Of a DNA stretch of 64,000 nt, positions 2,393-18,711 are shown one piece after another; within the stretch, counting starts at the first letter, position 1, and the number at the start of each line of letters is the position of its first letter. This DNA is from Spironucleus salmonicida (Eukaryota), in assembly GCF_000497125.1 (NCBI RefSeq), contig NC_090598.1, forward strand, positions 1,488,001 to 1,552,000, written 5' to 3'. A program made the translations under genes and the position numbers. Under the pieces are notes generated by a model. That model was not told the DNA's origin. It searched no databases and worked only from the letters and a program-made list of their open reading frames with translations.

Positions 2393-2427
<35 letters not shown>
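1..2427 (+). mobile_element. Non-LTR retrotransposon (RLE type) inserted in histone H4, copy 1; 5' part lies outside the window
   Basis: Matches 5225-7645 at an offset of 5224 (ORF-track peptides identical). Ends in a 34-nt poly(A) at 2394-2427, joined to H4 sequence CAAATCCGAGAAGG at 2428. Confidence 0.95.
2..2302 (+). CDS. Retrotransposon RT-RLE protein, copy 1 (5'-partial at window edge; TAA/TAG=Gln)
   Basis: Same sequence as the copy-2 ORF; TGA at 2300-2302. Motifs KAGGPSG, FIPK, FRPI, LDVRNAFN, GVPQGDPLS, YADD, CTLCG..DHDQKC, RH, YPD..DLDVT..K. Confidence 0.93.
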
Positions 2428-2428
<1 letters not shown>

Positions 2429-2680
2429 AAATCCGAGAAGGATGCACTCACAGGCATCACCAAGCCTGCCATACGCAGGTTGGCGCGCAGAGGTGGCGTG
2501 AAGAGGATCTCGTCCACGATCTACCCCCAGACGCGCGAGGTGCTGAAGGCGTTCCTGGACGTGGTCATCAGGGACTCGCTGACCTACACTGAGCACGCGC
2601 AGCGCAAGACGGTGACGTCGCAGGACGTGGTGTACGCGCTGAAGCGCCAGGGCAAGACGCTCTACGGCTTCGGGATCTGA
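2428..2680 (+). pseudogene. H4: Histone H4 3' portion, separated from its 5' end by retrotransposon copy 1
   Basis: [28 protein letters not shown]...LYGFGI-TGA follows the poly(A) directly. Confidence 0.93.
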
Positions 2681-2862
2681 GTGATGCTATTCTTGTGGTA
2701 CTCGTTGTGTGAGCGTGTGGTGCATAGGGCTTCCGTGTCTAGTGGGGTGGCGTACTTCCTGCACAGTGCCATAGTGCATATATGTAATATAATAATACTC
2801 ATTCGGGCTTCCCGCAAGTATGATAGTGTATATAAATAATATAATACTAAGGACTCACGATT

Positions 2863-3259
2863 CCCGCAAAGTACCATACTGCCCGAGTATGGTATAATAG
2901 TACCAAATTACGGCTCCCGCCCAAATGCCATACTTCACATATGCAACATTATAATCATAATCCTTCATGGCTCCCTTCCACTCGGCTGGTTTCCCATGGG
3001 CGGGATGTCAAGGGGGCCTTGCCGAAGCCCTTGCCCTTGCCTTTTCCCAACGTCGGTTGGCATGCAGCGTATAATAATGTAATGTTGGTGTCCCTTCCGA
3101 TATGTTAAAGTGGGAATAGGCAATATAATAAAGGGGATTTTCCCTTTCCCGCGAAGTATGATAGGGCATATATACGGTATTATAGTGAGTATTCCCGCTC
3201 CCCGCAAAGTACCATACTGGCCGAGTATGGTATAATAGTAGCAAATTACGCCTCCCGCC
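2863..3259. repeat. Spacer-internal ~59-bp direct repeat (2863-2921, 3201-3259), each with a 9-bp-stem palindrome
   Basis: CCCGCAAAG-TACCATACT-G(C/G)CCG-AGTATGGTA-TAATAGTA(C/G)CAAATTACG occurs twice per unit. Confidence 0.85.
3015..3053 (-). other. Inverted H4 N-tail-like fragment in the spacer, present in every unit
   Basis: Minus strand reads ACG TTG GGA AAA GGC AAG GGC AAG GGC TTC GGC AAG GCC = [13 protein letters not shown] versus H4 [13 protein letters not shown]. Confidence 0.75.
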
Positions 3260-3965
3260 AAAACAGCATTCTGCACATAAATACGCGTGGGCGTATATAA
3301 ATAATACATATATGGCCTATAGCCACTATATGTGCGAGGTTCCTCTACCACCCCACACGGTATTCATATGCTCATAATGGCGAAGTGGGCCGTCGTCCAC
3401 CTCGTCCCCACCAGAGGAGAGAACTCGCCCGGTTTGCCCTTGCCCTTGCCCTTCCCGGACGTCCGCAGGAGCTCGTCCGGAGGCTGGCAGTACCGCCCGG
3501 TCTCGCCCGGCGTGGCACGCACTTGCTTGGGCGGCGTGCGATGGCGCGAGATGACACCCGATGCATGGCACGGCGCGAGATCATCTTAGATGGCCTGCCT
3601 GCCGTGCCCCGCGCCCCGCGCCCATATGGGGCCTACGGGGCCGAGATATGGAGTTCCGGTGAAAATGAGTCTGCAGTTCTGCATATTGAACACGGTAAAT
3701 TTAGTAGATAGATATTTGTATACATCACATATAACATACATACCTATATTCCATAAATCCCTATATGCATCTATATATACTTATACCTATATTCGCACAC
3801 CGCAACCACTTTCGTCACTATAACTATATATTATTCATATTAAAACTCGCTCCCGCCCCCGCCCCAACATATATATTTTATATAGCATATATAAGTATGG
3901 GTTCGCGAACCGATAGCTGGTTTCATCACCAACCTCATAATGCAGGAGTGAGGGTGCTATCAACA

Positions 3966-6900
3966 ATGTCTGGAAAAGGAAAGGGAAAAGGTTTTGGAAA
4001 GGCGACAGACTCGGAGAACACTAGCGATAGTGTAGACCCTGTTGCTCTCACCGCCTAATAAATTCGTATTAGAAGCCTGTTCAAACAGGCACCTGCTCTA
4101 CCCCAACCCCAACCCCAGTCGATCGCTAGTCACATTTCTTCTACCATGAAGAAGCAATAGGCACCTCCAACGTCTAATGGTGACCCCTCGACTTTGACAT
4201 ATTCCCCCTTCACATAAGTTTCAAGCGTGAGACTGTTCAAGCAGGGCCAGGCAAGCCGGGAGGCTCCTGTGCTCTCAGATAAGACCAATAAATCTATCAT
4301 GAGCTTCGTGAAAGCAAGAGAAGAAGAAAGAGCCCCGCAAGGTGCTCCGGACACTTCGGCTGCCGACACTCAGAATCGCGCGCAATTCCCTTCCACACAA
4401 ATTCACGGGGAAACTACAGCTGCGCTCGTTAACTGCCAAGACGAGTAAGCTTAGGAGGTAGCTAGTCTAGCTGCCCCTAACGCAGCGGAAGTGACTGAAC
4501 AACCGCCCTCCTCATAGGTTGCCAGTTAAGAAGGGGCCCCAACCGATTAACCTAGCCTCTAACCAGAGAGCTAAGAGGAAAGCGAGGCCCCGCCTCGCCC
4601 GGATCCCCCAGATGCTCCGGACTACGGGATAGACCCACCAATTCCCAGGCTACCCTCACAAAACATACCGGTAGAGCCCAGAGTCAGACCTCAACTGAAT
4701 TCAATCACCCGGTATGGTATCGTCCACGAGACGAGATCTCAGACAAGACTTATTCCTGAGACACGTGCCCCAAGCACAACAGAAAGTAACGAACACGCTA
4801 GACCAAGGAACCCTGACAAGCCTTTTGAATGTCAGGCATGCACCTTCGCGTCGTCCGACCCCACGAGCCTGCTGAGACATCACGCGCTCACGAGAGGCGG
4901 ATAGCACGATATAAAGTTCCCGCTACTTAGATACAAAGAAGTTTACGAAGACCCCAAACTCTTCAGATTCTACTGTGGAATCTGTAATCACCCTTTTACG
5001 AAGAAATTAAATGTCATGCTCCACCTAATGGATGGAAAATGCAAGAACAAGTAAGGAATGACAAACGAAGCTGCCCAATTGCTAGTAAGAAATAGAGATG
5101 TCTATAGCCTCGAACTAGAGGAATAGCTGGCAAAAGCATCGGCCGCCAAGGCGGCAAGAGCGAAGAGTATAGCAGAATAAATAACTGCACCCAAAATAGG
5201 ACTTCCACCGGAAGCGACGATCAACCTATCTCCTTTAGGTTGCGCTACGGACAAGAAGAATTTAGCATTACGTTTTATCCAGATGAAACTGGAGATTGAA
5301 AACGGAGCTGACATCCTAGACGCCTTTAACTAATTCATAGGCGCATTCAGAAGAAAACAGGCATGTAACACCAGACGCGATACCAATCAAAAATAGATAG
5401 ATTTCTGCTTTTAGAGAGGACAGACTGGAAAGGCATGGAACCTTATTAAGGAAAATTAGAACAAGTAGAACCTATCCCCAGAAAACGCCAGCTCCAGACC
5501 GGACCTGGTTAGAGAGTTATTTTAGGAAAACCGGAAACCCGAATATGAATCGGCATCGCGGTAGGGATCAGTAAGAACAGCGCTGCAAGCGCCAACGGCA
5601 GAAGAGATTACGAAGATAATCCTATAGTACCGGGATGGCAAAGCAGGCGGCCCGAGTGGCATTCTTCCAGCCCACCTGAAAGAACTTGAGAAGTCTCATC
5701 ACATCTCAAACATTCTTGCGAAGGTATACAAACTAATACTTGATACACCATCCCTAGTGAACAAGACTAGGAGACTATTCGAATACCGGATAATCTTCAT
5801 CCCAAAGAACGCGACCAAGTTTAGACCGATTTGCATACAGGAGTTATTCCTATAAGTCCTGCACAAAGCACTGGCAGAGAAGATGAAGCAGCAACTAACC
5901 CTAGGCAATTATCAATTCGCCTTTACCAAAAACGCTCTCCTCAGAGCCAAATATTAAGCTAATATCATGCTTAAGAATGGGCTCACCCTTACTTCCCTTG
6001 ACGTACGAAACGCCTTTAACGCCGTACCTCATAAAGTAATCGAAGAAGAACTCGTGAAAGCCGGCCTAGCACCGGAAACCAACCAATACATCCAAGCCTT
6101 TTTGATGGCGCGGAATGCGGAGGGGTTGGAAAGGCTAGGCACCGGCGTCCCCCAAGGGGATCCATTGTCCATGATGCTATTCTGTGTTGTAATGCGCCCG
6201 ATCCTAGATCGGCTCGCAGGCAAATACAAGGTTATCGCATCGTACGCGGACGATGTCCTGATAGGTCACGATTCAGGAGTAAACCTCAAAGACTGTGAAA
6301 GCGTCTTTGCAGACTACGGGCTAACCCTGTCTGTGGAGAAATGCATAACAGCCTCCCCCACCCAAGCGATTAAATTCGTTGGGTAAGAATTTAAGGACAA
6401 ACCGATACCGTTAACAGATCACTTGCTCCAAACCGCTCAGGATGCCTTCCTACTCCTCGAGCAATCGAAGCTCGGGACCACCCAATAACGGTTCCAGATG
6501 TTTGTACAATGTATTGTTCCCTCAGTCAACTATGGCCCACTTGTGGACGTCACGGATGACTAGGAAGCCGGATATACGAAGATAGACGACAGCCTTGTTG
6601 CCACCACCTCGCTGATAGCGGGACTAAGCATAAAGATTGAAACTCTATTGGATAGCTAGATCCGGGGTGGAATGAACGTGATCACACCTGGTCGCTTCTA
6701 CCCACTCATGACCGCAGCACGCGATGAATTCCATGAGAACAATCACTGCGTCTTTAGAAATATCAGGGAGAAAATCAAAGAACTCGTTCCGGACGATCCA
6801 GATCCTGGACGCCCGATGATTTTCCCCTGCATCTTAGGAGCCACCAGGCTCCCTGGACAGTCTGTCCAGTATCTCTTGAACTCGGCTTTCGGCCCGGTAG

Positions 6901-7526
6901 CGACACCCAGTAAAACCCATTTGTGTACGCTATGCGGTACCCCTAAGATTGGAGATCACGACCAAAAATGCAATAGAAATAGCGGAATCCGAATAGTTAG
7001 ACACAACAAGGCTGTCTCAGCCGCGATGAACTGCCTAGCGAAGTACGAGCCCCGTGAAATAACACGTCAATAAGCTCCTGAAGGAAAGTTTTATCCGGAC
7101 TTCAGAATCATTGTAAGTAAAATCCTGACAGTAGACCTAGATGTCACGTTTACTTCGCAAGAGAATATGGACGCGAAATTTGCAGAAAAGGTTAGAAAGC
7201 ATAAATTGCCTGACCCTAACCAGACTATAATCCCAATGGTTATCTCACATGAACTTTAAATTCATCGCGAGACACTCAAGTTGTTGAAATTCCACTTCCC
7301 GGAGTTCAACTACAGGAAATTTATGGAAGCGGTGGGAACTGCGACCTGTTTCTATAGACAGGACTCAGTTCGAAACAACACTGCACGATAGATCATAGCT
7401 CTCCAGGATAGGAACTATGGTTTAGAGGAAGACGTTGCAATACGTCTTAATTGGAGAAATGCTGCGAAGAATAACAATCGCAGGCGCCAGCACGCCAGAG
7501 GGAGTGCTGTCGCACCCGGGCCGTGA
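3966..7526 (+). CDS. H4-tail::retrotransposon fusion ORF, 1186 aa: H4 residues 1-13, disordered Pro/Gln/Glu-rich region, two zinc fingers, reverse transcriptase, CCHC knuckle, PD-(D/E)xK endonuclease
   Basis: Hand translation with TAA/TAG=Gln from the H4 ATG at 3966 meets no TGA until 7524-7526. ZnF1 KPFECQACTFASSDPTSLLRHH (~4818); ZnF2 FYCGICNHPFTKKLNVMLHLMDGKC (~4968); RT GQTGKAW, KAGGPSG, FIPK, FRPIC, QFAF, LDVRNAFN, GVPQGDPLSM, YADD; CTLCGTPKIGDHDQKC; RHN; FYPDFRI..DLDVTF..EKVRKH. First internal ATG is at 4146. Confidence 0.9.
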
Positions 7527-7645
7527 GGCCAGGGAAAACAAGAAAACCCCCCCCGACAGGGGCAGTAAAGATCCCATATACGCAATGAGGAATGGCAGTA
7601 CTCGAGTGATCTTTTACAAAAAAAAAAAAAAAAAAAAAAAAAAAA
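4006..7645 (+). mobile_element. Non-LTR retrotransposon (RLE type), complete copy 2, inserted after H4 codon 13
   Basis: 5' junction ...GGAAAGGCGA|CAGACTCGG; 3' junction CTTTTAC(A)28|CAAATCCGAG. Intact H4 reads GGCGA-AAAGACA-CAAATCC, so 7 bp are replaced and there is no TSD (3640-7=3633=5218-1585). Confidence 0.96.
7605..7609 (+). promoter_or_regulatory. Putative polyadenylation signal AGTGA of the retrotransposon
   Basis: AGTGA lies 8 nt before the poly(A). The same pentamer overlaps the TGA stop of many host genes here (20092, 25549, 28418, 45364, 47776, 56710) and follows the H4 stop (TGAGTGA). Confidence 0.55.
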
Positions 7646-7898
7646 CAAATCCGAGAAGGATGCACTCACAGGCATCACCAAGCCTGCCATACGCAGGTTG
7701 GCGCGCAGAGGTGGCGTGAAGAGGATCTCGTCCACGATCTACCCCCAGACGCGCGAGGTGCTGAAGGCGTTCCTGGACGTGGTCATCAGGGACTCGCTGA
7801 CCTACACTGAGCACGCGCAGCGCAAGACGGTGACGTCGCAGGACGTGGTGTACGCGCTGAAGCGCCAGGGCAAGACGCTCTACGGCTTCGGGATCTGA
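7646..7898 (+). pseudogene. H4: Histone H4 3' portion, downstream of retrotransposon copy 2
   Basis: H4 coding sequence resumes immediately after the poly(A). Confidence 0.93.
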
Positions 7899-9183
7899 GT
7901 GATGCTATTCTTGTGGTACTCGTTGTGTGAGCGTGTGGTGCATAGGGCTTCCGTGTCTAGTGGGGTGGCGTACTTCCTGCACAGTGCCATAGTGCATATA
8001 TGTAATATAATAATACTCATTCGGGCTTCCCGCAAGTATGATAGTGTATATAAATAATATAATACTAAGGACTCACGATTCCCGCAAAGTACCATACTGC
8101 CCGAGTATGGTATAATAGTACCAAATTACGGCTCCCGCCCAAATGCCATACTTCACATATGCAACATTATAATCATAATCCTTCATGGCTCCCTTCCACT
8201 CGGCTGGTTTCCCATGGGCGGGATGTCAAGGGGGCCTTGCCGAAGCCCTTGCCCTTGCCTTTTCCCAACGTCGGTTGGCATGCAGCGTATAATAATGTAA
8301 TGTTGGTGTCCCTTCCGATATGTTAAAGTGGGAATAGGCAATATAATAAAGGGGATTTTCCCTTTCCCGCGAAGTATGATAGGGCATATATACGGTATTA
8401 TAGTGAGTATTCCCGCTCCCCGCAAAGTACCATACTGGCCGAGTATGGTATAATAGTAGCAAATTACGCCTCCCGCCAAAACAGCATTCTGCACATAAAT
8501 ACGCGTGGGCGTATATAAATAATACATATATGGCCTATAGCCACTATATGTGCGAGGTTCCTCTACCACCCCACACGGTATTCATATGCTCATAATGGCG
8601 AAGTGGGCCGTCGTCCACCTCGTCCCCACCAGAGGAGAGAACTCGCCCGGTTTGCCCTTGCCCTTGCCCTTCCCGGACGTCCGCAGGAGCTCGTCCGGAG
8701 GCTGGCAGTACCGCCCGGTCTCGCCCGGCGTGGCACGCACTTGCTTGGGCGGCGTGCGATGGCGCGAGATGACACCCGATGCATGGCACGGCGCGAGATC
8801 ATCTTAGATGGCCTGCCTGCCGTGCCCCGCGCCCCGCGCCCATATGGGGCCTACGGGGCCGAGATATGGAGTTCCGGTGAAAATGAGTCTGCAGTTCTGC
8901 ATATTGAACACGGTAAATTTAGTAGATAGATATTTGTATACATCACATATAACATACATACCTATATTCCATAAATCCCTATATGCATCTATATATACTT
9001 ATACCTATATTCGCACACCGCAACTACTTTCGTCACTATAACTATATATTATTCATATTAAAACTCGCTCCCGCCCCCGCCCCAACATATATATTTTATA
9101 TAGCATATATAAGTATGGGTTCGCGAACCGATAGCTGGTTTCATCACCAACCTCATAATGCAGGAGTGAGGGTGCTATCAACA

Positions 9184-9483
9184 ATGTCTGGAAAAGGAAA
9201 GGGAAAAGGTTTTGGAAAGGCGAAAAGACACAAATCCGAGAAGGATGCACTCACAGGCATCACCAAGCCTGCCATACGCAGGTTGGCGCGCAGAGGTGGC
9301 GTGAAGAGGATCTCGTCCACGATCTACCCCCAGACGCGCGAGGTGCTGAAGGCGTTCCTGGACGTGGTCATCAGGGACTCGCTGACCTACACTGAGCACG
9401 CGCAGCGCAAGACGGTGACGTCGCAGGACGTGGTGTACGCGCTGAAGCGCCAGGGCAAGACGCTCTACGGCTTCGGGATCTGA
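9184..9483 (+). CDS. H4: Histone H4 (99 aa), intact
   Basis: [44 protein letters not shown]...[12 protein letters not shown]; diplomonad-type short tail. Confidence 0.98.
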
Positions 9484-10768
9484 GTGATGCTATTCTTGTG
9501 GTACTCGTTGTGTGAGCGTGTGGTGCATAGGGCTTCCGTGTCTAGTGGGGTGGCGTACTTCCTGCACAGTGCCATAGTGCATATATGTAATATAATAATA
9601 CTCATTCGGGCTTCCCGCAAGTATGATAGTGTATATAAATAATATAATACTAAGGACTCACGATTCCCGCAAAGTACCATACTGCCCGAGTATGGTATAA
9701 TAGTACCAAATTACGGCTCCCGCCCAAATGCCATACTTCACATATGCAACATTATAATCATAATCCTTCATGGCTCCCTTCCACTCGGCTGGTTTCCCAT
9801 GGGCGGGATGTCAAGGGGGCCTTGCCGAAGCCCTTGCCCTTGCCTTTTCCCAACGTCGGTTGGCATGCAGCGTATAATAATGTAATGTTGGTGTCCCTTC
9901 CGATATGTTAAAGTGGGAATAGGCAATATAATAAAGGGGATTTTCCCTTTCCCGCGAAGTATGATAGGGCATATATACGGTATTATAGTGAGTATTCCCG
10001 CTCCCCGCAAAGTACCATACTGGCCGAGTATGGTATAATAGTAGCAAATTACGCCTCCCGCCAAAACAGCATTCTGCACATAAATACGCGTGGGCGTATA
10101 TAAATAATACATATATGGCCTATAGCCACTATATGTGCGAGGTTCCTCTACCACCCCACACGGTATTCATATGCTCATAATGGCGAAGTGGGCCGTCGTC
10201 CACCTCGTCCCCACCAGAGGAGAGAACTCGCCCGGTTTGCCCTTGCCCTTGCCCTTCCCGGACGTCCGCAGGAGCTCGTCCGGAGGCTGGCAGTACCGCC
10301 CGGTCTCGCCCGGCGTGGCACGCACTTGCTTGGGCGGCGTGCGATGGCGCGAGATGACACCCGATGCATGGCACGGCGCGAGATCATCTTAGATGGCCTG
10401 CCTGCCGTGCCCCGCGCCCCGCGCCCATATGGGGCCTACGGGGCCGAGATATGGAGTTCCGGTGAAAATGAGTCTGCAGTTCTGCATATTGAACACGGTA
10501 AATTTAGTAGATAGATATTTGTATACATCACATATAACATACATACCTATATTCCATAAATCCCTATATGCATCTATATATACTTATACCTATATTCGCA
10601 CACCGCAACTACTTTCGTCACTATAACTATATATTATTCATATTAAAACTCGCTCCCGCCCCCGCCCCAACATATATATTTTATATAGCATATATAAGTA
10701 TGGGTTCGCGAACCGATAGCTGGTTTCATCACCAACCTCATAATGCAGGAGTGAGGGTGCTATCAACA

Positions 10769-11068
10769 ATGTCTGGAAAAGGAAAGGGAAAAGGTTTTGG
10801 AAAGGCGAAAAGACACAAATCCGAGAAGGATGCACTCACAGGCATCACCAAGCCTGCCATACGCAGGTTGGCGCGCAGAGGTGGCGTGAAGAGGATCTCG
10901 TCCACGATCTACCCCCAGACGCGCGAGGTGCTGAAGGCGTTCCTGGACGTGGTCATCAGGGACTCGCTGACCTACACTGAGCACGCGCAGCGCAAGACGG
11001 TGACGTCGCAGGACGTGGTGTACGCGCTGAAGCGCCAGGGCAAGACGCTCTACGGCTTCGGGATCTGA
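10769..11068 (+). CDS. H4: Histone H4, intact
   Basis: Same protein as 9184-9483. Confidence 0.98.
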
Positions 11069-15823: not shown

Positions 15824-17229
15824 GTGATGCTATTCTTGTGGTACTCGTTGTGTGAGCGTGTGGTGCATAGGGCTTCCGTGTCTAGTGGGGTGGCGTACTT
15901 CCTGCACAGTGCCATAGTGCATATATGTAATATAATAATACTCATTCGGGCTTCCCGCAAGTATGATAGTGTATATAAATAATATAATACTAAGGACTCA
16001 CGATTCCCGCAAAGTACCATACTGCCCGAGTATGGTATAATAGTACCAAATTACGGCTCCCGCCCAAATGCCATACTTCACATATGCAACATTATAATCA
16101 TAATCCTTCATGGCTCCCTTCCACTCGGCTGGTTTCCCATGGGCGGGATGTCAAGGGGGCCTTGCCGAAGCCCTTGCCCTTGCCTTTTCCCAACGTCGGT
16201 TGGCATGCAGCGTATAATAATGTAATGTTGGTGTCCCTTCCGATATGTTAAAGTGGGAATAGGCAATATAATAAAGGGGATTTGCCCTTTCCCGCGAAGT
16301 ATGATAGGGCATATATACGGTATTATAGTGAGTATTCCCGCTCCCCGCAAAGTACCATACTGCCCGAGTATGGTATAATAGTAGCAAATTACGCCTCCCG
16401 CCAAAACAGCATTCTGCACATAAATACGCGTGGGCGTATATAAATAATACATATATGGCCTATAGCCACTATATGTGCGAGGTTCCTCTACCACCCCACA
16501 CGGTATTCATATGCTCATAATGGCGAAGTGGGCCGTCGTCCACCTCGTCCCCACCAGAGGAGAGAACTCGCCCGGTTTGCCCTTGCCCTTGCCCTTCCCG
16601 GACGTCCGCAGGAGCTCGTCCGGAGGCTGGCAGTACCGCCCGGTCTCGCCCGGCGTGGCACGCACTTGCTTGGGCGGCGTGCGATGGCGCGAGATCACCT
16701 TAGATGGTCTGCCTCCCCACACCTCACCATGCTGCCACCCCACCACACATCGCACACCCAAAGCGATGACATAACCAAAGTATATCCGACATATCCCGTA
16801 ACTCCATATTATTATCCACACCTCTATACATACTGCATGGTAAATTATATCGCTCATTCCATCATATGCAAGACGAATCATCCATTTCCCATATATTTAG
16901 TCAAGTCCGAATTAAAAATATGAATATTATATAAAATATATTTAACTTTCATCTAAAAATATAATAATATTATTGAATATTTAACATAATAATGCTATTA
17001 AATAAAAATATAGTTGTTATTCTTCTGGATGTAATTTAATAATGGTGAGTATTCTAATTTGAGATTATACAGCTTAAAATGTATAACCTAGTTTAAAATC
17101 AAGTTTTATTGTAGTGAATATTAAATTTATTAGGTACCCTTTATTTGCTATTTGATAAAAGTAAACTTTATTTAAGCCACATAAACTATTATTATTTGTT
17201 TATATTATATTATATATAAAATTAGAAAA

Positions 17230-18012: not shown

Positions 18013-18711
18013 TCATTCTTTATAGGTTCTGAGATCATCACCAAGTTCTTAAGCAGCCCAAAGATCAGGGGTAAGGAAAGTGTAAGATTTCTTTAAGGCG
18101 TTGAACATAGCACCAACTGAATTCATAAGAGTTCTGGTGTGACCGAACTGACGAGAGAATACGTCTTCAATACCTGCAAGAGCAATGAGTTCTTTGACTT
18201 TAGGAGCAGAAACGATGCCAGTACCACGAGGTGCAGGAATGAGTCTGAAAGTAACAGAACCGCACTTACCAGAAACCTTCTGGGAGATGGTATGAGGATT
18301 ACCCATCTTAGAACCCCAATATCCACGTCTGATGGGTATAAGGTTGAGCTTTGCATTAACTACAGCCTTCTTGACAGCCACAGCCACTTCCTTAGAAACA
18401 CCAGAACCATAACCGATATGACCATTACGATCACCAACAATTACAGTGGCATGGAAACGAGTACGCTGGCCAGCAGAGGTCTATTTCTAAACAGAACGAA
18501 CCTTCACTACTTTTTCTTCAAGAGTGATGAAGTTGTCAATGATTTAAGCTTCTTTGCAAGGGAGGGAGTATTTAAATACTTCAGCTAAAGAAGTTACTAC
18601 ACCAGACTTAACTAAACGACCAAGTTTAGTAGTAGGGTTCCAAATTTCTTCAGGCTTAGCTCTGGGAGCACCTCTTTCACCACGCTGTTCTTACGTTCTT
18701 TCCGTAGACAT
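18013..18711 (-). CDS. RPS2: 40S ribosomal protein S2 (uS5), 232 aa
   Basis: WNPTTKLGRLVK, VQKQTSAGQRTRF (the two Gln of VQKQ encoded by TAG), IPIRRGYWG, GKCGSV, LIPAPRGTGIV, FLTPDLW. Confidence 0.97.

Follow-up and report, generated by a model that had tools for sequence, protein, structure and literature searches.

An inverted, transcribed fragment of the histone H4 gene start in every spacer of a Spironucleus salmonicida H4 array: a probable pseudogene relic

What is a piece of the histone H4 tail doing, in inverted orientation, in the spacer between tandem H4 genes? The question arises from a window of 64,000 nucleotides of Spironucleus salmonicida (assembly GCF_000497125.1, contig NC_090598.1, positions 1,488,001 to 1,552,000), for which a first-pass annotation had described an antisense, synonymously recoded copy of H4 codons 1-13, ending at the codon where a retroelement inserts into the H4 gene. 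It had proposed that this copy might be the fossil 5' junction of an older H4-fused element, a decoy for the zinc fingers of the element or a source of antisense RNA. Here, we conclude with moderate confidence that the copy, which we call relic 1, is a dead, inverted pseudogene fragment of the H4 5' end, homogenized into all units of the array and passively transcribed, with no function of its own.

The left part of the window, from position 1 to ~16700, is a tandem array with a unit of 1585 bp, each unit carrying a 99-codon histone H4 gene (Table 1). Among the units that start at 9184, 10769, 12354 and 13939, the number of differing bases is 0-1. The array has a G+C content of 46-52%, against ~19-33% in most of the remaining window, the exception being a patch of 38-43% at 18-20 kb. 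Its frames are open only under code 6, in which TAA and TAG are sense codons; by eye, a ribosomal-protein-like gene at 18040-18710 on the minus strand also has in-frame TAA/TAG codons, which is consistent with a host using code 6. The last unit leaves the consensus from about 16690 (16686-16900), fading into an AT-rich flank, and is without the 29-base internal duplication (GGCGCGAGAT...) present in the other units. This last-unit variant was seen in both RNA and DNA contigs, as loose ends at 10355. An array of this kind was known before: the available part of a published description (PMC9509377) lists nine H4 genes and five pseudo-copies for S. salmonicida, arranged in tandem with four reverse-transcriptase genes scattered among them, and reports that duplicated regions are higher in G+C. 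That part of the article, the sole array paper returned by our search on Spironucleus, histone H4 and retrotransposon, holds no description of the H4 spacer. The element itself interrupts two of the seven H4 bodies of the window, one base past codon 13, with a second copy at 1-2427 running off the window start. Its endonuclease motifs are C-terminal and restriction-like.

Table 1. Coordinates, within the 64,000-nucleotide window, of the H4 gene, the inserted element and the spacer features
Feature	Position	Strand	Remarks
True H4 codons 1-13	3966..4004	+	AT-ending tail codons; in-frame fusion to inserted element; intact genes start at 9184, 10769, 12354, 13939, 15524
R2-like retroelement (zinc finger, RT, restriction-like endonuclease), poly(A)-tailed	4005..7645	+	1186-codon frame open from H4 ATG, code 6
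Intact H4 coding sequence, reference unit	9184..9483	+	mRNA polyadenylated at about 9498-9500
Relic 1, inverted copy of H4 codons 1-13	3015..3053	-	ATG -> ACG, codon 2 -> TTG; identical copies start at 8233, 9818, 11403, 12988, 14573, 16158
Relic 2, second inverted H4 copy, more decayed	3433..3462	-	Starts ACG; H4 likeness lost past codon 9; recurs at 8651, 10236, 11821, 13406, 14991, 16576
Spacer module A	9576..9744	+	Direct repeat of module B (9912-10082), 77% identical
Minus-strand spacer RNA	9645..10355	-	RNA-like contigs, T-run; contains relic 1 (9818-9856) and relic 2 (10236-10265); first-unit equivalent 2842-3552
107-codon open frame, code 6	9761..10081	-	Reads relic 1 in H4 frame; identical unnamed sequence in UniRef, EukProt, MetaClust

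Relic 1 reads on the minus strand ACG TTG GGA AAA GGC AAG GGC AAG GGC TTC GGC AAG GCC, and the neighboring H4 gene starts with ATG TCT GGA AAA GGA AAG GGA AAA GGT TTT GGA AAG GCG. The two agree in 11/13 residues and 29/39 bases, and within codons 3-13 in all 11 residues and in 26/33 bases. The antisense copy reported by the first-pass annotation is thus real, and it is present in every unit as had been stated: the exact 39-mer occurs seven times in the window, once in each of the seven spacers. None of 2000 dinucleotide shuffles of the spacer reached 29/39 (maximum 24), and a tblastn search of H4 against one spacer gave E=3.4e-5 for the tail match. The part of relic 1 that is not repetitive, TTC GGC AAG GCC, stands in register after the Gly-Lys run, and by chance TTY GGN AAR GCN would occupy the 12 bases next to such a GGNAAR run with a probability of about 3-4e-6 per position. 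The match does not belong to a generic (GGCAAG)n microsatellite, since the 14 occurrences of (GGCAAG)2 in the window all lie in relics, with none in 16701-64000; at relic 1, Tandem Repeats Finder reported no repeat.

The likeness ends after GKA, again as described, and the flanks on either side of relic 1 align with those of H4 no better than shuffled sequence does: the score observed for the 60 bases downstream of relic 1 was reached by 3631 of 5000 shuffles, and that for the 60 bases upstream by 1565 of 5000. By tblastn, the spacer holds in any frame only tail matches, with no histone fold or other part of H4, and its nine reading frames contain neither a Pfam histone domain nor any other Pfam domain beside the relics. 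A weak tblastn match upstream of the relic in another frame (YTEHAQRK against YTLHANRR, E=0.68) was treated as chance, and a Pfam hit to Sde2_N_Ubi_vert in the spacer frames was dismissed, at 14 bits against a cut-off of 27. Relic 1 is homologous to H4, but with ACG in place of ATG and no histone fold it is a fragment and not a gene.

It is also not alone. Absent from the first-pass annotation is a second inverted piece, relic 2, which lies ~410 bases from relic 1 in every unit and reads on the minus strand ACG TCC GGG AAG GGC AAG GGC AAG GGC AAA. Past codon 9, its differences from H4 change amino acids. A weak third GKGK is found at 3138-3149 on the minus strand. Modules A and B of the spacer are colinear, with one relic after each, and in both relics ACG replaces the ATG of H4. 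Since both relics start with ACG and stand at equivalent module ends, the simplest reading is that a single ancestral fragment, its start codon already lost, was duplicated together with the spacer module. The likeness between the middle parts of the two modules is not significant (156/2000 shuffles). The distance from ACG to TGA is 32 codons in both relics, which we take as a coincidence, as the downstream parts do not align. In every unit, modules A and B are made up of sub-repeats of ~53 bases. A perfect 8-bp hairpin, whose arms ACCATACT and AGTATGGT enclose a loop of 5 bases, occurs in each sub-repeat.

How relic 1 differs from the neighboring gene is informative about its origin. Within codons 3-13, all seven differences fall on third positions and are silent (p=7.7e-5 under random placement). 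At A/T sites of the same codons, 6/8 third positions have changed, against 0/10 first or second positions (Fisher p=0.0015). Free decay, with or without a drive from G+C-biased repair, would hit first and second positions too; hence the divergence points to a time when both sequences coded for the tail. The source of relic 1 would then have been a functional H4 version with G/C-ending tail codons, and such a source explains why it differs from the neighboring gene only silently.

Such a version exists in the group. Two H4 genes from relatives, L001 and L002, which encode one and the same protein, came from a pattern scan of metagenome contigs. The L002 tail is written GGA AAG GGA AAG GGC AAG GGC TTC GGC AAG GCG, and over codons 3-13 relic 1 is closer to it (30/33 bases) than to its own neighbor (26/33), a closeness that may be partly coincidence, as it involves another organism and only 11 codons. 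The L001 tail has A/T-ending codons, like the gene of the window. Between L001 and L002, third positions differ at 9/11 sites in codons 3-13, against 14/86 elsewhere (p=2e-5); the silent differences are dense in codons 2-23, thin gradually over codons 2-32 and are absent past codon 79. Within the H4 gene of the window, GC3 from 5' to 3' is 4/13, 7/13, 9/13, 21/21, 19/20 and 19/19. The 5' end of H4 seems to escape whatever homogenizes or biases the remainder of the gene. Anchored alignments of upstream (promoter) sequence among the sense H4 gene, the relics and L001/L002 were not significant.

Judging from these sequences, real H4 genes exchange the silent sites of their tail codons quickly, and what was called synonymous recoding is the ordinary variation of H4 5' ends in this group. 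The GC-ending codons of relic 1 are there as described, but to call them recoded is misleading, because such codons are natural in the H4 tail of a relative. The window's H4 N-terminal tail itself is conserved in Hexamita inflata and related organisms. Proteins identical to the H4 of the window were also found at loci with other flanks or codon choices (P0004, P0125, P0127), with either a different 3' flank or a Gln50 codon that is read as a stop under the standard code, so other synonymous H4 versions exist in public data. A further idea, in which the element would have replaced the H4 leader as far as codon 13, was rejected: GC3 rises gradually, and the differences between L001 and L002 show no step at codon 13.

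The history that we favor would have begun with a functional H4 gene with G/C-ending tail codons, a version still used by a related diplomonad. A fragment of its 5' end would have been inverted into the spacer, possibly by one of two routes linked to the element: an endonuclease break at the element cut site followed by aberrant repair, or cDNA synthesis from the short H4 leader of an H4-element co-transcript. The fragment would have lost its start codon (ATG to ACG) and, in relic 1, also codon 2. A duplication that took in a spacer module (about 340-410 bp) would have yielded the sister copy, relic 2, which decayed further. Homogenization of the array would then have spread relic 1 unchanged to every unit, where it probably rides passively, in H4-like sense orientation, in a polyadenylated spacer RNA from the minus strand. 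Some observations speak against a fossil. Codons 3-13 show no first- or second-position change, even though flank similarity is lost and the sister copy is only about 77-86% alike; such conservation in an old neutral fragment leaves room for constraint. The rarity of sterile transcripts in the species, and the long open frame through relic 1 with its entries in public protein collections, both described below, also count against this reading.

The RNA just mentioned is what is new in our analysis: a polyadenylated minus-strand RNA that covers relic 1, from two RNA-like runs. These runs, X5 and X6, are two of four runs of one study (X5-X8) that are presumed to be RNA, none of them being on record as such, and were compared with a DNA run, X1, and with a run from organism B, X9. 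We take X5 and X6 as RNA from their behavior. In both, the H4 contigs, of very high depth, stop at 9498-9500, where a non-templated A-run leads into adapter sequence, and no cover is seen over 9502-9607, a stretch that is covered in the DNA run. In X5, positions 9645-10355 form one 712-base contig at a depth of 1329, roughly one twentieth of that of H4 (23,688). In X6, depth is 2620-4752 over 9645-10052 and 262 beyond. Relic 1 lies within the spacer RNA in both runs, and relic 2 in the part thinly covered in X6. The sole strand mark in the contigs is a non-templated T-run before 9645 in X6, which is the poly(A) tail of a minus-strand RNA. Run X9 gave a single 151-base contig, at 10567-10717 and a depth of 2.3.

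The poly(A) site of this RNA lies 13 bases past a GTGA. In the text available to us, the distance from stop to tail in S. salmonicida has a mean of 13.2 bases and is 9-14 in 122/134 genes (PMC1805757), and an AGUGA signal is attributed to the species (PMC11529991, seen in part); the spacing in the spacer RNA fits both. The site also falls just past one of the ~53-base hairpin sub-repeats. The same portion of PMC1805757 describes sterile transcripts as rare in S. salmonicida, at about 1% of ESTs, so background transcription would not be expected to yield an abundant spacer RNA. At E<=1, Rfam gave no match on 9184-10900 or on 2400-7700, and no HDV-like ribozyme was found at the element 5' end. 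The predicted fold of the minus-strand RNA over 9645-10085 shows no special structure (z=-0.02).

Is relic 1 connected with the retroelement? Its likeness to H4 ends at codon 13 and the element junction lies one base later, a coincidence within 1-2 bases. This coincidence was noticed post hoc and would arise about 3 times in 100 for a random breakpoint. The leaders of diplomonad mRNAs are 1-10 bases long, as stated of Giardia in the consulted part of PMC1805757, and a piece running from leader to cut site is what one expects from an aberrantly repaired break of the target or from the leader cDNA of an H4-element co-transcript. In X5, a 31-mer across the H4-element junction has a depth of 1050, against 6000 for the 31-mer of intact H4, suggesting fusion transcripts that begin at the H4 start and continue into the element. 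The 31-mer corresponds to 9194-9224 of the window, the junction being at 9223/9224 and, in the copy that carries the element, at 4005/4006. A link between the end of relic 1 at codon 13 and the H4-specific retroelement is thus plausible, and we find ourselves evenly divided on it.

The stronger claim, that relic 1 is the fossil 5' junction of an H4-fused element, is supported only in part. The homology to the H4 5' end is true and stops at the junction, but blastn and tblastn searches with the element of the window found no element-like sequence in the spacer beyond the tail match. Since no element sequence adjoins the relic, at least of the one element family examined, such a junction would be without its defining feature. 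The relic could also work for or against the element today, as a decoy or secondary landing site, or as an RNA leader look-alike that competes with the element transcript or assists it. The 15 bases upstream of the cut are alike in relic and true target at 11/15 positions, the relic ends where the element joins, and relic-bearing RNA occurs in the same RNA-like runs as the junction 31-mer. We nevertheless regard such a role as unlikely. Insertions are found at 0/14 relic sites against 2/7 true H4 sites, and the relic sequence 3' of the cut does not resemble the target, which together speak against the proposed decoy for zinc fingers. The spacer RNA is neither unusually structured nor a member of an Rfam family. 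Finally, the spacer of the L002 H4 array is AT-rich and has no antisense Gly-Lys piece; from the repeated ends of its contig, the L002 array would have a tandem unit of about 1.3 kb. As a side observation, two predicted H4 proteins of relatives (P0030, P0031) carry foreign sequence at the N-terminus, with the join immediately ahead of HRSKEKD and close to the insertion site found in this window. They may be ORF calls across element-H4 3' junctions, in which case the same target site would be used in relatives.

The spacer RNA could alternatively be a messenger. Read in its H4 frame, relic 1 belongs to an ORF that stops at a TGA (9758-9760) and is 107, 104 or 86 residues long, depending on whether the ATG at 10081, 10072 or 10018 is taken as the start. 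Under such a reading, a protein of 86-107 residues that mimics the H4 tail would be made from the ATG at 10081 or 10018 (3278 or 3215 in the first unit). It would account for the purely silent differences of relic 1, as expected under ongoing selection on the peptide, and it suits the polyadenylated minus-strand RNA that spans the ORF, the rarity of sterile transcripts in the species (PMC1805757, as far as available) and the presence of the 107-residue sequence in UniRef and EukProt. The first ATG below 10071 opens the relic frame, and the ATG at 10081 follows an AT-rich stretch.

The 107-residue ORF does not behave as a coding sequence in its homologues, its codon periodicity or the distance from its stop to the tail. 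Among 1.84 billion representatives, its only matches are itself and two spurious repeat-derived proteins. There is no GC 3-periodicity around relic 1. From the stop to the poly(A) site there are 113 bases, against the 9-14 bases given for most genes in the part of PMC1805757 cited above. Moreover, translated AT-rich 53-base repeats account for much of the ORF, the unit has many long open frames because TGA is the sole stop, and relic 2 is decaying at the amino-acid level. A weak GC periodicity is seen in the frame of relic 2, with G+C of 0.81 at one codon phase against 0.57-0.63 at the others (p=0.003 for the best of about 55 windows, without correction). The 81-residue frame there has no homologue within the length band searched. 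On balance, we think a messenger improbable. If it were true, each H4 repeat would encode one tail mimic, which could compete for factors that modify or bind the tail, or for the H4-leader fusion protein of the retroelement.

A different use of the locus would be transcription of the plus strand of the relic into RNA antisense to the 5' end of the H4 mRNA or to the element leader, as the first-pass annotation had suggested. Over H4 bases 7-38, 26 of 32 positions are complementary to the plus strand of the relic, and the contigs are blind to strand except at the poly(A) end. At that end, the T-run before 9645 marks a minus-strand RNA, and because this RNA carries H4-like sequence in the sense orientation, it cannot pair with the H4 mRNA. 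The lack of cover over 9502-9607 in both RNA-like runs, just past the H4 poly(A) site, means that H4 transcripts end before the relic is reached. The source of antisense RNA thus finds no support in the one strand mark that we have, and we consider it very unlikely. Least credible of all is that relic 1 is a chance, GGCAAG-type low-complexity sequence that happens to resemble a Gly-Lys tail: its core is a period-6 repeat, the plus strand of the spacer is rich in TCCC/GCC motifs and relic 2, taken alone, matches solely through the repeat plus ACG TCC, but the shuffles never reached the match of relic 1, its in-register TTC GGC AAG GCC has a chance of about 4e-6 per position, and by BLAST it matches L002 at 30/32.

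If our preferred reading of a dead pseudogene fragment is right, an H4 gene with GC-ending tail codons was once present in or near the array, which helps to put a date on silent change at the H4 5' end. The end of relic 1 at the cut site may be a footprint of element activity, and would then be a rare trace of a site-specific element remodeling a protein-coding array. The relic also flags an unannotated and fairly abundant polyadenylated RNA from the H4 spacer, in an organism where non-coding transcripts are thought to be rare. The understanding of histone genes or of R2-like elements would be unchanged by all this unless the peptide or the link to the element were shown.

On this reading, the relic is a fresh instance of the known gene-fragment relics of repeated gene arrays. 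Gene fragments and pseudogene pieces of the "orphon" type occur in or near histone gene arrays. Like them, relic 1 would be a short non-functional histone piece in the non-coding DNA of a repeated locus, carried along by concerted evolution. It differs from them in being only 13 codons long, inverted and present twice per unit, in ending at a retroelement insertion site and in being part of a polyadenylated RNA. Site-specific non-LTR elements of the R2 type are co-transcribed with their target gene and have variable or aberrant 5' junctions. The element of the window resembles them: it uses one fixed site, its frame is open from the H4 ATG and it is joined to the H4 leader in RNA contigs. The relic is unlike an R2-type junction, since it has no adjoining element sequence and no Rfam ribozyme and lies inverted in the spacer instead of at the target site. 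In LINE-1 insertions, twin priming inverts the copy made from the 5' part of the retrotransposed RNA, and the RNA 5' end sets the limit of the inverted piece. The process leaves this piece joined to the element and to a 3' part flanked by poly(A), whereas the relic has neither. As for the spacer RNA, the closest parallel among the systems compared here is with the sterile polyadenylated transcripts of Giardia (Teodorovic et al. 2007, PMC1885649, in the part available to us). It differs from these in lying between genes and not antisense to a gene, and it resembles them in having no conserved ORF, in carrying a poly(A) tail and in arising from the non-coding DNA of a diplomonad.
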